NCBI GenBank assembly: GCA_964291285.2
Contig: OZ219786.1
Location: 1,216,001 to 1,280,000 of the forward strand
Reading direction: 5' to 3'
DNA from: Alphaproteobacteria bacterium
GTDB lineage: Bacteria > Pseudomonadota > Alphaproteobacteria > Bin95
DNA: 64,000 nucleotides
The stretch's first letter is position 1, and each line of letters starts with the position of its first letter. A program made the translations under genes and the position numbers. The notes under the pieces were generated by a model. That model made no database searches. It was not told the origin of the DNA and saw only the letters and a list, made by a program, of their open reading frames with translations. Shown in pieces: positions 17,443 to 42,034 of this stretch.

Positions 17443-17521
17443 CCGCGCGCTCCTTCCTCCTTCCCCGCGAGCAAAACATGAACAATTTCCAATATTTTTG
17501 ACTTTTGTTCGTGTTTAGATC

Positions 17522-17548
17522 TTGACATCTGGCGGATTGTGGTATGAT
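17522..17548 (+). promoter_or_regulatory. Putative sigma70 promoter of cassette 1
   Basis: TTGACA (17522) and TATGAT (17543) after an AT-rich UP-like tract; spacer is only 15 bp. Confidence 0.5.
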
Positions 17549-17770
17549 GGTCCCCGGGGAAGCGGACTCCGGAACCGCGTCCCCGGGCGCCGCGCGGCCG
17601 GCGGCGCCGCCTTCGAAAAAATACCCGCAATACCGACGGGAGGGGTGCGCCTGCCGCCTCGCGCGCGCAATCAGGCGTGCGAACCGCGCCGGCGCCGGCG
17701 CGCGGGCGCGCACACACGCGAAACGCGCGCGGCAAAGGGTCCGCCGCTCCCGGACCGGAAGGAGACATGG

Positions 17771-18427
17771 ATGACCGCAACCGACCCCCGCCCCGCACTG
17801 GCGGCGGCGCTCGCCGCAAAGCTCGCGCCCGCCGCCGAAGCCCTCGCCGCTGCCTATGCCGAAGACCTGAACCCGGAGCCCCCGCCCCCCGACGACCGCG
17901 CCCGCGCCGAATGCCACCGCGCCGCCCGCGCCCAGCTCGACCACCTGCACAAGCTCCTCGCCCTGCTCGACTGGGCCGGCGCCCACCTGCCCGAACCGCC
18001 CGCCCCGGAACCCGAAGAGGAGCCGTGGGAGCCGCCGCCCCCGGAAGAGGACGATTACGACGGCAGCGAGGACGAGTTCCACTATCGCAGCGAGGTCTAT
18101 GTCGGCAGCCAGGAGACGCCCGAGTTCCGCGCCTGGTATGCCGAGCAGGAGCGCCGCTTCGGACCGCTCGTCCCCGACGAGGCCGAGTATGACGGCAGCG
18201 AGGACGAATACCACCACGGGCGGCGCAAATATGTCGGCAAGCTCAGGACGCCCGAGTTCTACGCATGGCTCGAACGGCTGGACCGCCGCGAAGCCGAAGA
18301 GGAGCGCCAGGAGGAGGAAGCCGAAGCCCGCGCCGCACTCGCACGCACAGCCGCACACGGCGGCGGACGGGAAGACGCCGCAGCGGCGGACCATGACATG
18401 CCGCCGCCGGAACATGACAAAACATGA
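17771..18427 (+). CDS. Hypothetical acidic protein with internal repeat, ending HDKT
   Basis: AAGGAG RBS; helical N-terminus; two copies of YDGSEDE(F/Y)H...YVG...TPEF.AW. Confidence 0.75.
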   Translation: MTATDPRPALAAALAAKLAPAAEALAAAYAEDLNPEPPPPDDRARAECHRAARAQLDHLHKLLALLDWAGAHLPEPPAPEPEEEPWEPPPPEEDDYDGSEDEFHYRSEVYVGSQETPEFRAWYAEQERRFGPLVPDEAEYDGSEDEYHHGRRKYVGKLRTPEFYAWLERLDRREAEEERQEEEAEARAALARTAAHGGGREDAAAADHDMPPPEHDKT

Positions 18428-18442
18428 CATTCCATGACACTT
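18413..18442 (+). repeat. 3 x 10-bp CATGACA direct repeat over the stop codon
   Basis: CATGACAAAA CATGACATTC CATGACACTT. Confidence 0.9.
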
Positions 18443-18645
18443 CCGGGGGGCCTTGGACCGGATGGTCTCATGCGCCCCTTCGGCAAGCTCGGGACAGGTT
18501 CTTTCGTCCCCCCGGACCTGCCTGCCGCCGCGCAGGCGGTTGCGGGCCGTGCTATGCAAAGCCGACGCTGGAGATATGTGAATCCGGCAGCGGGCGGGGC
18601 AGGGGCTTCCAGGCGGCCGGTGCCGTCATCGGGCCCGGGCCGCCG

Positions 18646-18672
18646 TTGACAGGCAATGTTATGTTATACACT
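18646..18672 (+). promoter_or_regulatory. Promoter with overlapping Zur-box-like site
   Basis: TTGACA followed by GGCAATGTTATGTTATACAC, upstream of metal uptake genes. Confidence 0.65.
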
Positions 18673-18730
18673 ATCGCCCGATGCGCGGTTGGGAGGCCTT
18701 TCGCAACGGAAGGCTGTCGGAGGAACGTCG

Positions 18731-39243: not shown

Positions 39244-39599
39244 AGCGCTCCGGCCTCCCGGCAGGCCTGAAGAAGCTTTTTGTTCCAAATAAATCAGAAA
39301 TAATTCAAAAAATGCTTGACCTCCGGAAAGCCCATGCCTAGATAGGTCCGAGGTGAGCGAAGTCCGCGCGGACCGCTTCCCGCCCGCGCCGGCCCGGTGC
39401 GGAACGACCCCGATTCAGCCGACAGGCGAGGTGCGTCCTGTGCCCGCCTCGCGTGCGCGCAATCAGGCGCGCGAACCGCGCCGGCGCCGACACCCGCCCG
39501 CGCCGGCACAGGCGCGCGCAGGATACGCGCGAATAAGGGTCGCTCCCCGCCGGGCCTGCCTGTCGAACGCCAGCGGAACGAAAGGAGCCGCCGCACCCC

Positions 39600-40589
39600 A
39601 TGCCCGTCATCGACCCCGCCGTCGCGCTTTCCACCCGCCAGGAAGCCTTCTGCCGCCACTACACAGCGTCCGGCAATGCCGCAGACGCCGCAAGGCAGGC
39701 CGGCTATGCCGAGCGCTCCGCACGACAGACCGGATGCGCCCTGCTGGAGCGGCCCTACATCGTCGAGCGCGTGCGCCGCATCCGCCTGTCGTGGCGGCGC
39801 ACCGAACGCGACGAGGCCCGCATCCTGCTCGCCCGCTCGGAGCAGGCCTGGGACGCCGCCGTCGCCAGCGGCTCGGCTTACATGATGCTCCGGGTGCTGC
39901 GCTTCCAGGCCGAGATCGCCGGGCTTGTCAGTCCGGCCGGCGCGAACCGGGCCCGCCTCTGGCCGCTGCCGCACGAGGACGAGTTCGGTGAGATCGAAGC
40001 GGGCGAGGCGCAGGAGGCGGGCACCGAGCCCGGACCGCTCGCCGAGGCCGTGCGCAGCGGCCATGCCCGGGCCGAACGAGCGCTCGCCCGCCACCGCGAG
40101 CGGCGCGAGGCGATGGAGGCGCAGGAGGGCTTCGACGGGGCCGCGCACGAGGAGGACGCCCGCAGGCTCGCCGCGGCCGTCGAGGAGCGCTCCCGCCTGC
40201 CCGTCAGCTTCGGCCCCCCGCCCGCGCCGGCGAACGACCTGCCGCCAGCCGACGACCCGCCGGAGGAGACCTACGAAGACTGCCCCTGGGCCGCCGCCGA
40301 CACGCCCGGCCACGAGGACAGCACCGACGACGACCGGGCCGACGGCGCCGAACATGACTGGCTCTACCAGCGCCGCAACGGCTACGACGACATCTACGAC
40401 CCCTGGGCCCCGGAGCAGGTCGAGGAGCGCAGGCAGAGCCGCCTCGAACGGGAAGAGCGGGGCGAAGACGAAGACAACGATTGGAGCGGACCGGCGGCGA
40501 GGGGGAAGAAGCAGAAAAAGAAGAAGGGGAAGAAGCGGAGGACCGGCCCGGAGGACGCCGGTTCCGCCCCCGACCATGACAAAACATGA
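39600..40589 (+). CDS. Terminase small subunit-like protein with long acidic tail, ending HDKT
   Basis: LSTRQEAFCRHYTASGNAADAARQAGYAERSARQTGCALLERPYI matches the TerS (Terminase_2) N-terminal HTH pattern; [10 protein letters not shown]. Confidence 0.8.
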   Translation: MPVIDPAVALSTRQEAFCRHYTASGNAADAARQAGYAERSARQTGCALLERPYIVERVRRIRLSWRRTERDEARILLARSEQAWDAAVASGSAYMMLRVLRFQAEIAGLVSPAGANRARLWPLPHEDEFGEIEAGEAQEAGTEPGPLAEAVRSGHARAERALARHRERREAMEAQEGFDGAAHEEDARRLAAAVEERSRLPVSFGPPPAPANDLPPADDPPEETYEDCPWAAADTPGHEDSTDDDRADGAEHDWLYQRRNGYDDIYDPWAPEQVEERRQSRLEREERGEDEDNDWSGPAARGKKQKKKKGKKRRTGPEDAGSAPDHDKT

Positions 40590-40606
40590 CACTTCATGAC
40601 ACTTCA
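40575..40606 (+). repeat. 3 x 10-bp CATGACA direct repeat over the stop codon
   Basis: CATGACAAAA CATGACACTT CATGACACTT. Confidence 0.9.
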
Positions 40607-40684
40607 CTGGAGTGGGCCCCTGGTCTCGGACAGTTTTGTTGTAGGAAATTGACAGGTGCGCGGTCATTGGAAGGATCGACGCCG

Positions 40685-41035
40685 ATGAGGAAGCACCGCA
40701 CGCACAGCATGGCCTTCAAGCGCCAGGTCGTTGAGGAGTATCTGGCAGGCGAGACGTTTTACGGTCTGGCCCGCCGTCATGACCTGTCTCGCACCCTGAT
40801 CCGGCTGTGGCTGGAGAAGTATGAGGCCGGGGCCTTCGATGAGGAGGCCGAGGCGGCCGACAGGCTCCGGGCATATGAGGCCCGGATCGCGACGCTCGAA
40901 CGGCTGGTCGGCCGGCAGGCCGCGGAGCTGGAGTTCCTAAAGGGGGCTTTGCGGCAAGGACGGCGGTCGAGGCGCGCGCCCATGTCCGTGATCGCCGGCC
41001 CCGAGGCCTCTCCGTCGCCGAAGGATGCCGACTGA
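40685..41035 (+). CDS. IS3 OrfA
   Basis: HSMAFKRQVV...LARRHDLSRTLIRLW HTH; possible -1 slip at AAAGGGGG (~40938). Confidence 0.9.
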   Translation: MRKHRTHSMAFKRQVVEEYLAGETFYGLARRHDLSRTLIRLWLEKYEAGAFDEEAEAADRLRAYEARIATLERLVGRQAAELEFLKGALRQGRRSRRAPMSVIAGPEASPSPKDAD

Positions 41036-41829
41036 TGGGGATCGCGCGCTCCACCTGTTACCGCGAGCCGCAGAGCCCGGTCGACGACACCGCCCTGGTC
41101 GAGGCGATGCACGAGATCAAGGACGAGTTCGAGGCCTATGGCTGGCGGCGCATGCAGGCGGAACTTCGCCACCGGGGCCGGACCGTCAACCACAAGAAGG
41201 TCAGGCGGCTGATGCGCGAACACGCCCTGCAGCCGCCGCGCAAGCGCCGCTTTGTCGCCACCACGGACAGCGGCCACGACGGGCCGGTCTTCCCGGACCG
41301 GTCCCGGGACTGCGAGGTCGAGGGCCCGAACCGGCTCTGGGTCGCCGACCTGACCTACATCGCCATCCTGGACGGCTTCGTCTATCTGGCGGCGGTCATG
41401 GACGCCTGGTCGCGCCGCATTGTCGGCTACGCGCTCGGGCAACGCATCGACGCGCGCCTGACGCTCGCGGCGCTCGACAAGGCGATCGGGAACCGAAGCC
41501 CTCAGCCCGGCTGCATCCACCACTCCGACAGGGGCTCGCAATACGCCGCCCATGCCTACCGGACCCGGCTCGACAAACACGGGATGGTCGGCTCCATGGG
41601 ACGACGAGCCAACCCCTACGACAACGCCATGATGGAGAGCTTCATGAAAACCCTGAAGGTCGAGGGCGTCTATCCCATGGCCTTCGAGACCGCCGAAGAC
41701 GTCGCAAGGCAACTGCCGCGCTTCATCGACAGCTACAACCACAGACGCCTGCACTCCGCGCTCGGATATCTGAGCCCAAACCGCTTCGAGGAAAAACAAC
41801 ATCGCAACCCTGTCAAAAATGCCGCTTGA
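41035..41829 (+). CDS. IS3 OrfB (rve integrase core)
   Basis: WVADLTYI, HHSDRGSQY, DNAMMESF, YNHRRLHSALGYLSP. Confidence 0.93.
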   Translation: MGIARSTCYREPQSPVDDTALVEAMHEIKDEFEAYGWRRMQAELRHRGRTVNHKKVRRLMREHALQPPRKRRFVATTDSGHDGPVFPDRSRDCEVEGPNRLWVADLTYIAILDGFVYLAAVMDAWSRRIVGYALGQRIDARLTLAALDKAIGNRSPQPGCIHHSDRGSQYAAHAYRTRLDKHGMVGSMGRRANPYDNAMMESFMKTLKVEGVYPMAFETAEDVARQLPRFIDSYNHRRLHSALGYLSPNRFEEKQHRNPVKNAA

Positions 41830-42034
41830 AACTGTCCGACCCAAGGGGCCCACTCCACACGGGGTGCATGGCCCGGGGACCTTTCCGCCGGCTTCGACGA
41901 GGGGCGCTGCGAGCGGCCGGAGGGGGGACAAAGTTACCCATTCGTTCCACAGGCCCTCGGCCCTCGGCCGGTCGCTTCGGCGGCCGGCCGGGTGTATGTT
42001 CCGGGGGGCGAATCGGGTGTAAGGAACAACGGTT

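Follow-up and report, generated by a model that had tools for sequence, protein, structure and literature searches.

A dispersed family of intergenic cassettes combining a conserved leader, a predicted small-terminase-type or unrelated gene and a phased heptamer array in an alphaproteobacterial genus

Introduction

Bacteria carry several kinds of dispersed intergenic repeat, among them repetitive extragenic palindromic (REP) sequences and bacterial interspersed mosaic elements (BIMEs), miniature inverted-repeat transposable elements (MITEs) and Correia elements. Phage satellites are single islands of several kilobases with an integrase, replication genes and att sites, and those of the phage-inducible chromosomal island (PICI) type carry a small terminase of their own that redirects packaging. 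A DNA-binding gene accompanied by phased direct repeats is found at iteron-type plasmid origins and repeat-array centromeres, and integron cassettes consist of a promoterless open reading frame (ORF) plus attC, inserted at attI beside the integron integrase. [quoted passage not shown] Here we describe a family of small chromosomal cassettes first noticed as two loci in a 64,000-nucleotide stretch of an Alphaproteobacteria bacterium genome (GenBank assembly GCA_964291285.2, contig OZ219786.1, positions 1,216,001 to 1,280,000; hereafter, the window). Each cassette has a GC-rich leader, one ORF and a row of CATGACA heptamers, and we refer to the two window members as copy 1 (17474-18439) and copy 2 (39277-40601).

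The cassettes resemble the pac site and small terminase (G1P) of SPP1 and SF6 in that one class encodes a predicted small-terminase (TerS)-type helix-turn-helix (HTH) domain followed by helices that model as self-associating, and in that direct repeats lie around the gene's own promoter and coding region, as is the case in SPP1 (PMC4737164). In contrast to the phage site, the cassettes have no adjoining large terminase (TerL) and no surrounding phage, are present in about 90 copies per chromosome, carry the array at the 3' end of the gene and have an acidic protein tail of about 210 amino acids and a long conserved leader. A further difference lies on the SF6 side, where the HTH domain is reported to lack repeat specificity (PMC4737164).

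Similarly, the PICI-type satellites encode a TerS homologue outside a phage that might direct the large terminase of a helper onto non-phage DNA, but the cassettes, at 0.5-1.4 kb and about 90 copies, have none of the integrase, replication module and att sites of PICI and P4-like satellites. With REPs, BIMEs, MITEs and Correia elements they share high copy number, a strictly intergenic position, size variants that arise by internal deletion and a role as preferred targets of insertion sequences (ISs). They differ from these in lacking terminal inverted repeats (TIRs) or palindromic units, in carrying a phased heptamer array at one end and in that intact members encode conserved proteins subject to purifying selection. 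Iteron origins and centromeres likewise combine a DNA-binding gene, an operator-like partial repeat at its promoter and adjoining phased direct repeats; here, however, the protein is of the TerS type rather than Rep or ParR/ParG, the repeat unit is only 7 bp, and ninety chromosomal copies make a role as origin or centromere implausible. Unlike integron gene cassettes, the units carry promoter-like hexamers of their own and are dispersed rather than arrayed. The family borrows from the small terminase with its pac site and from dispersed repeats, and departs from each in the features that define it. A full-text literature search, judged at the level of the search results, returned no description of such a cassette family.

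Results

The original prediction, made from the window alone, was of a dispersed family rather than a two-copy duplication, and it proposed a genome-wide search with the leader core. We searched the window's own genome (G000; 6.13 Mb, 5 contigs) on both strands with the 26-nt core, allowing up to 4 substitutions, and obtained 93 matches, on both strands and on every contig, so the two window loci are not the only copies; of 16 further genomes of the genus, 13 also have the leader in multiple copies. CATGACA occurs 901 times in the genome, and 445 of these heptamers fall in 121 clusters of at least two. A heptamer cluster is met before the next core in 88 of the 93 cases, and within 1.4 kb of the core in 83. 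The units are 0.5-1.4 kb long with a single ORF, and none of the 93 copies lies inside a gene called by our own crude gene caller (4,193 genes). Their density is roughly even, at 17 per Mb on three contigs. Orientation shows no bias with respect to the downstream gene (52 copies in the same direction, 41 opposite) or to GC skew (44 to 49), and the idea that the cassettes serve as mobile promoters for neighbouring genes was set aside because there is no orientation bias toward the downstream gene. The cassettes are a genus-wide family of about 90 small intergenic units per genome.

Arrays hold 2-8 heptamers, and their spacing follows the helical repeat. Among 238 distances between successive heptamers, 191 are exactly 10 bp, 22 are 20-21 bp, 18 are 32-34 bp, 6 are 42-44 bp and one is 11 bp, so that all heptamers point to the same side of the helix. 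Such phasing favours a protein on double-stranded DNA over an RNA signal. Three CATGACA units at a 10-bp period also put TGA and ATG into every reading frame, and the first ORF preceded by a ribosome-binding site (RBS) stops within the array in 63 of 80 copies.

Based on the N-termini encoded by the 93 copies, we distinguish three ORF classes. Class A comprises 19 copies, 10 of them intact (329-336 amino acids), and includes copy 2; class B, a protein of no named family, comprises 22 copies, 6 of them intact (192-234 amino acids), and includes copy 1; class C comprises 16 copies that encode peptides of 31-58 amino acids; and the remaining 36 copies have unrelated short ORFs or none. The copy 2 protein had been predicted to start like a terminase small subunit and, indeed, its residues 11-71 match Pfam Terminase_2 (PF03592; E 1.8e-11, 45.2 bits against a cut-off of 26.1), although over profile positions 2-62 of 141 only. 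Class A also matches PHROG 51 (terS) at E 9.9e-13. Judged by these profile matches, the class A N-terminus is a TerS-type HTH domain. The AlphaFold (AF2) model is in keeping with this assignment, with an HTH and long helices at a predicted local distance difference test (pLDDT) score of 85-92 over residues 5-110, and above 80 for the helices at 52-106. The best PDB neighbour found by Foldseek is the DNA-binding domain of the SF6 small terminase (4zc3; target template-modelling (TM) score 0.85, 39% identity, probability 1.0, E 0.11), followed by the full SPP1-like small terminase 3zqq.

A search with class A found 338 relatives at E <= 0.001. Conservation of residues 10-200 persists in sequences of only 42-49% overall identity; these residues are followed by a variable acidic tail, in which a Lys/Arg-rich patch KKQKKKKGKKRR stands after a very acidic stretch containing Trp and Tyr (40493-40540 in the window); one class B variant has a similar patch, RERKRRKKEKRRKKREK. 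Relatives from phages and viral contigs match residues 8-122 only, at less than 60% identity. Across 46 sequences, the median ratio of nonsynonymous to synonymous substitution rates (dN/dS) is 0.20 for residues 1-115 and 0.45 for the remainder, a pattern that indicates purifying selection on class A. When residues 1-205 were modelled in four copies, the score was 0.44 against 0.00 for the best of 3 controls, with a contact agreement between runs of at least 48%, a partner pLDDT of at least 66 and an interface formed by helices 68-110. Of 30 proteins solved as homo-pairs, 20 reach the mark for self-association, as does 1 of 23 proteins whose solved structure is a single chain. Since small-terminase rings are among the solved structures, the pass obtained for class A may reflect likeness to them rather than stand as proof.

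The class B protein has 155 relatives at E <= 0.001, and its AF2 model (mean pLDDT 80) shows a helical hairpin and two beta-hairpin-helix repeats. Copy 1 matches no Pfam family, class B matches no named PHROG family, and the class B model has no PDB match at E <= 0.001. As the original prediction had it, the proteins of copy 1 and copy 2 are not alignable: their direct comparison gave no alignment, and the same was true of class A and class B sequences. PADLOC returned no match for either class.

Comparison with G007, a genome of the genus with 19 copies, shows how the family evolves. Class A ORFs are 92-99% alike within G000 (mean 93%, with one outlier at 83-85%) and 95-99% within G007 (mean 96.5%), whereas between the two genomes they are 73-78% alike (mean 76%). 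Positional orthologues are no closer, at 76-77%, though their 1.5-kb flanks are 90-94% alike. The most alike pair within G000 is 96% identical over 1351 nt, from inside the leader to the last heptamer, while the promoters of the two differ. Given that likeness within a genome exceeds that of orthologues, and that this pair is mosaic, the copies have undergone concerted evolution: they are kept alike by gene conversion or cohort replacement, in tracts bounded by leader and array. Classical transposition is not shown by these results.

The occupancy of individual sites varies between relatives. At the copy 1 site there is a 45-bp intergenic region in G010 and a 105-bp one in G016, and neither leader nor array was found there in five relatives. 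The copy 2 site, upstream of ssb, is occupied by a full class A copy in G012 and by a short one in G016; G015 and G010 have just the heptamers there, and G007 has nothing. Of the G007 copies, 5 stand at 4 sites shared with G000, 2 at syntenic G000 sites that have no core, and 12 were unresolved. There is one clean empty site, where 7 nt in G000 face 832 nt in G007, including about 260 nt of unrelated sequence; this single pair has neither a target duplication nor inverted ends.

Beyond the genus the leader is all but confined: none of 8 genomes from two sister genera has it, and 16 other families gave one weak match only. Class B is present in 14 of the 16 genus genomes; of the three without the leader, two (G001 and G003) also lack class B. 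Class A-like genes were found in 2 of 401 genomes sampled across the class, namely G000 and one genome of another family, where they are again multi-copy. Distant class A homologues (45-59% identity) have no long leader and instead a short 5' untranslated region with two GAACAT repeats by the RBS. Nevertheless, 10-bp-phased NTGAC(A/G) arrays lie at or after the stop codon in 9 of 14 of them, with 1 of the 14 not assessable. This linkage of gene and array, which outlasts divergence of the protein, is the main reason to regard the class A protein and the array as a pair. Every one of the 80 loci kept from species-representative genomes lies in a metagenome-assembled genome (MAG) entitled 'Alphaproteobacteria bacterium' or 'Rhodospirillaceae bacterium'. 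The names of two of these bins refer to sponges, and the one RNA run with part of the stretch carries the label 'sponge metagenome', so the host genus, which is uncultured, is apparently sponge-associated.

Most copies have lost their ORF by internal deletion while retaining leader and array; many of the short ones derive from A or B by a simple internal deletion that spares the first 20-40 codons together with the array. The original prediction of exchangeable cargo between constant ends holds in part. The leader and array do persist while the ORF varies or decays, and one copy carries a different gene altogether, but the classes keep their own promoter and upstream variants, which makes them diverged subfamilies that recombine. 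In the exceptional copy (G000 C3:1311830-1315100; L211), an A-type leader is followed by a 400-amino-acid fusion of an N6/N4 DNA methylase and an HNH endonuclease, then by an IS1595-family transposase on the opposite strand and then by heptamers, and a 21-nt tandem repeat (GCGACGCAGCGGCGACGCAGC-like) lies between the leader and the methylase start.

Long copies result from insertions of IS1634-like, IS21, IS1595 and IS3 elements. One IS1634-like element (619-amino-acid transposase frame) is found in at least 8 leaders, 170-290 nt past the core and in both orientations (for example, G000 C1:257624-261537, C3:940986-943685 and C2:676293-679642); this recurrence makes the leader a second IS hot spot. 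The other lies beside the array. The IS3-end 12-mer TGGAGTGGGCCC has 54 matches in the genome and stands exactly 6 nt past the last heptamer at 19 places; with two mismatches allowed, it is found 6-7 nt past the array in 20 of the 93 elements. Both IS orientations occur beside arrays, and about half of the motifs have no IS behind them. This placement suggests either a very precise target choice beside the array or a shared end sequence. The same motif also follows the array in a distant genome (L087). Other intergenic repeats of the genus, with CATGCGCCCCTTCGGCAAGCTCGGGACAGG-like units and GTCATACCCGGACTTGTTCCGGGTATC palindromes, were seen at 18460-18640 in the window, at L011 2240-2915 and upstream in L084, and CGGTCGAAATGACGG repeat units in intergenic regions of distant genomes.

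An alignment of all copies places the start of conservation about 60 bp upstream of the -35 hexamer, at a T[TC]GTT[CT] motif; 59 of the 93 copies have it upstream, and mononucleotide shuffling yields it in 5 of 93. This motif and a GAANNNNTTC-like one are combined in two different arrangements, according to the ORF class, and TTTGTTCAT nearly matches the reverse complement of the heptamer plus its A-rich spacer. A loose promoter-hexamer pattern is present in 52 of the 93 copies, compared with 24 of 93 shuffles. The promoter that the original prediction had read at both loci stands as regards the hexamers, whose position is conserved across copies, but not as a consensus promoter: a sigma-70 consensus scan, under its own rules, found no site at copy 1 or copy 2, so that the call rests on reading and on this conserved position. 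The copy 2 hexamers are presumably akin to an alphaproteobacterial consensus of CTTGAC-N17-CTATAT.

The leader itself is about 250 nt long and GC-rich, and its core is present in all 93 copies. At a p-distance of 0.21 it is more conserved than the fourfold-degenerate sites of the adjacent gene (0.30; codon positions 1 and 2, 0.11) and is thus constrained at the sequence level. Overlapping alternative GC hairpins can be seen by eye in the core, and single-sequence folding gave z-scores of -3.4 for the copy 2 leader and -1.1 for that of copy 1. RNAalifold on 32 class A leaders from several genomes gave 33 pairs of which only 2 are compensatory, with a covariation term of -0.36, in a test whose power is low because the sequences are close relatives. 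Rfam gave no leader match at the gathering threshold at either locus; at E <= 5 copy 2 again had none, and copy 1 had a 15-bit leader match to RF02242 Xoo5 (E 4.4, gathering score 50) and a second weak match that falls outside the element. The sponge RNA run (contigs only) has a summed depth of 2396 over the core against 6.7 over the upstream gene. We rejected this signal as a sign of expression: three DNA runs show a like ratio (116,900 to 417, 76,550 to 116 and 28,104 to 106), so that it reflects copy number and not transcription.

The original prediction described two loci of a single architecture, and all their parts were read where it had placed them, with the shared leader block aligning as described. 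Both lie on the plus strand. In copy 1 an AT-rich upstream region (17474-17520) contains CATGAACA (17477-17484) and TTTTGTTCGTG (17503-17513), an inverted heptamer-like motif. Promoter-like hexamers follow at 17522-17548 (TTGACA 17522-17527 and TATGAT 17543-17548, with a 15-nt spacer and TGn before the -10). The GC-rich leader (17555-17770), whose start is inferred from the position of the -10, contains the core GCGCAATCAGGCGTGCGAACCGCGCC (17665-17690), AAGGGTC (17736-17742) and an AAGGAG RBS just 5' of the ATG at 17771. The class B ORF (17771-18427; 218 amino acids, no known family) ends in HDKT and a stop codon, encoded within the heptamers at 18413, 18423 and 18433, and the array (18392-18439) has a further heptamer at 18392, giving spacings of 21, 10 and 10 bp.

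In copy 2 the upstream motifs (39277-39306) are TTTTTGTTCC (39277-39286) and GAAATAATTC (39297-39306), followed by promoter-like hexamers at 39315-39344 (CTTGAC 39315-39320 and CTAGAT/TAGATA 39338-39344, 17-nt spacer). The GC-rich leader (39351-39599) holds the core (39457-39482), TAAGGGTC (39534-39541) and an AAGGAG RBS. The class A ORF (39600-40589; 329 amino acids) encodes the predicted TerS-type HTH at residues 11-71, a helical core to about residue 200 and an acidic tail with a Lys-rich patch, and it too ends in HDKT and a stop codon within the heptamers, which stand at 40575, 40585 and 40595 (array 40575-40601; three CATGACA, 10-bp period). A paired-heptamer pattern has 4 matches in the window against 0.00 expected from 100 shuffles.

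An IS3-family insertion sequence (40608-41857, plus strand; orfA HTH_Tnp_1, orfB rve; ends TGGAGTGGGCCCC...GGGGCCCACTCCA) sits 6 nt 3' of the last heptamer of copy 2, with a duplication of CAC (40605-40607 and 41858-41860). The original right flank of copy 2 resumes past it (41858-41880, plus strand), and its likeness to the copy 1 flank is only loose. Similarity past the repeat had been predicted as a feature of the cassettes; it holds in this loose form for the window pair but is weak family-wide, the flanks of 11 TerS-type copies diverging within a few bases. The window also holds two tRNA genes (45861-45933, plus strand; 50876-50946, minus strand), which are its only Rfam matches at gathering score.

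Discussion

Based on these observations, we tentatively propose that a TerS-like protein oligomerises on the phased array to form a pac-like nucleoprotein site, and that most copies are decayed shells of this unit kept alike by conversion. A full unit would be a self-contained transcription unit with an AT-rich motif, hexamers, a leader of about 250 nt, one ORF and a row of CATGACA on one face of the helix. The ancestral ORF would be that of class A, a small-terminase-type HTH protein. It may oligomerise through the helices behind the HTH and bind or wrap the phased array, and it may also bind the heptamer-related motif at its own promoter and so regulate itself. By analogy with SPP1-type small terminases on the direct repeats around their own gene, the outcome would be a pac-like site. 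Gene and site would have multiplied together around the chromosome, most copies then decaying to a leader-plus-array shell.

What such sites might do is a separate matter. The cassettes may act on the large terminase of an infecting phage, either as a packaging decoy or as start points for the packaging of host DNA. A function in packaging or transduction is, in our view, unlikely. We are similarly doubtful that the roughly 90 arrays and 10 or so intact TerS-like genes serve as chromosome-wide packaging starts that capture a large terminase, whether from an infecting phage or from a transfer agent that has escaped recognition. CATGACA x3 occurs in 10 viral contigs and ATGACA x4 in 32, one of these being a 5-bp microsatellite. 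Among the 64 ORFs that flank 39 viral arrays, the commonest PHROG families are large terminase (3) and homing endonuclease (3); because several of the contigs are interrelated and about 1 TerL is expected by chance, we see no enrichment of terminases in this. Only two of the contigs, unrelated and low in GC, are suggestive: in L158 an array (5410-5436) lies 230 bp upstream of a Terminase_2-type terS that is followed by terL, and in L157 (10-280) an array at the start of the contig is followed by an ORF of 176 amino acids and then by terL.

A number of observations weigh against our proposal. The genome has 12 Terminase_2 matches, and all 12 are copies of the element with no large terminase beside them, which is as the original prediction had it for a unit without a recombinase of its own or an adjoining large terminase. 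A TerL_ATPase search of the genome had no match, and one weak Terminase_6N match fell below the cut-off. The only cluster of a large terminase, prohead protease/capsid and portal in the genome lies 1.1 Mb away, on the minus strand of G000 C2:85,000-92,400 (L101 11332-18389), where a DUF5906-type fragment, a TerL_nuclease large terminase, a prohead protease/HK97-type capsid and a portal gene are followed by host genes. The element copy nearest to these head genes lies outside the module, about 8 kb away from the portal gene. Relatives of this TerL occur in 4 of the 16 genus genomes, compared with 13 of 16 for the element, so that no resident packaging machine co-occurs with the family; with a single head cluster and so narrow a distribution, a gene transfer agent (GTA) or resident phage was dropped as the family's partner. 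The other neighbours of viral arrays are mixed (integrase, primase, ParB-like and tail genes), the array is also found in classes B and C, which have no TerS gene of their own, and no Foldseek match of the class A model has an E-value of 0.1 or below. For SF6 itself, the published account reports weak binding by the HTH domain and no preference for box repeats (PMC4737164), so that the reading of a specific heptamer by a TerS-type HTH is not the rule. Finally, the conserved leader is left unexplained by a model of protein binding.

Other explanations have to be set against the same data. The cassettes could be a non-autonomous, MITE-like transposable element that sometimes carries cargo and depends on a transposase supplied in trans, for example by an IS3-family element. 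High copy number, a strictly intergenic position, the many internally deleted copies, and presence or absence between species (the 45- and 105-bp regions at the copy 1 site; the G007 copy facing 7 bp in G000) all fit such an element, as does the TGGAGTGGGCCC IS3 end exactly 6 nt past the last heptamer in 19 cases, about half of them without an IS. However, only 2 of 93 copies have TGGAGTGGGCCC in their left flank, each time in direct orientation, and none has the inverted TIR form, the left border is conserved at motif level only, and the likeness of paralogues begins inside the leader and not at a fixed left end. Given also that the clean empty site has no target duplication (832 nt for 7 nt, in a single case) and that 4 of the 6 resolved G007 sites are common to G000, so that turnover of the cassettes is slow, we consider a MITE-like element quite unlikely, and the spread by a trans-acting enzyme that the original prediction had entertained finds no support in either the left flanks or the empty site. 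Alternatively, a TerS-derived protein and its dispersed arrays may have been domesticated as a chromosomal system for nucleoid organisation or regional gene control that has no link to phages. The roughly even density of phased arrays (17 per Mb), the lack of strand or GC-skew bias, the sites kept at the same positions in different species and the purifying selection on class A would suit this role. Yet most copies are decayed and several contain an IS, 3 of the 16 genus genomes have no leader and two of these no class B, A-like genes occur in only 2 of the 401 sampled genomes of the class, and the fast sequence turnover (76% against 90-94% in the flanks) is unlike that of housekeeping genes; domestication of this kind has, we believe, only a small chance of being correct.

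The leader, which our proposal leaves unexplained, could instead be the functional core of the cassettes, as a small RNA gene or a cis-regulatory leader acting, for example, in antitermination or attenuation, with the ORFs and heptamers as accessories. It is kept in all 93 copies, its p-distance (0.21 against 0.30) shows constraint, and the copy 2 fold (z of -3.4) and the overlapping GC hairpins seen by eye in the core would agree with such a role. But there is no Rfam match at gathering threshold, the copy 1 leader has a z of only -1.1, and 2 of 33 RNAalifold pairs are compensatory with a covariation term of -0.36. Moreover, distant class A homologues that lack the leader still hold arrays, and phasing at 10, 21, 32 and 43 bp is a property of double-stranded DNA, all of which makes a leader core very unlikely in our judgement. 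We give as little credence to the view that the cassettes are functionless relics of a phage packaging region (late promoter and leader, methylase-HNH, terS and pac) copied around by recombination. The TerS-type gene, the DNA methylase-HNH copy behind the same leader, the array 230 bp upstream of the terS-terL pair in L158 and the many degenerate copies speak for such an origin. Class A, in contrast, is subject to purifying selection, with 10 intact copies here and intact ones in many other genomes, no phage relative reaches 60% identity or extends past residue 122, cohorts are homogenised within each genome, and inert remnants would not keep leader and phased arrays intact at about 80 loci.

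Whether or not there is a link to packaging, the family is a clear case of concerted evolution. It also has practical consequences for the study of these bacteria, as it breaks short-read assemblies, with many copies in relatives lying at contig ends, and its stand-alone genes end up labelled 'terminase small subunit' in MAG annotations. The class A protein and the phased CATGACA array constitute a defined candidate protein-DNA pair. If our proposal and the packaging role were true, a part of the phage packaging apparatus, the small terminase with its site, would persist in uncultured symbionts as a chromosomal element of high copy number, distinct in kind from REPs and MITEs. Headful packaging from many points of the host chromosome would then lower phage output and carry host DNA, along with the cassettes, from cell to cell, and recombination through the conserved leader and array would both spread the cassettes and keep them alike. 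This would be a testable route for gene movement or phage resistance in unculturable bacteria.

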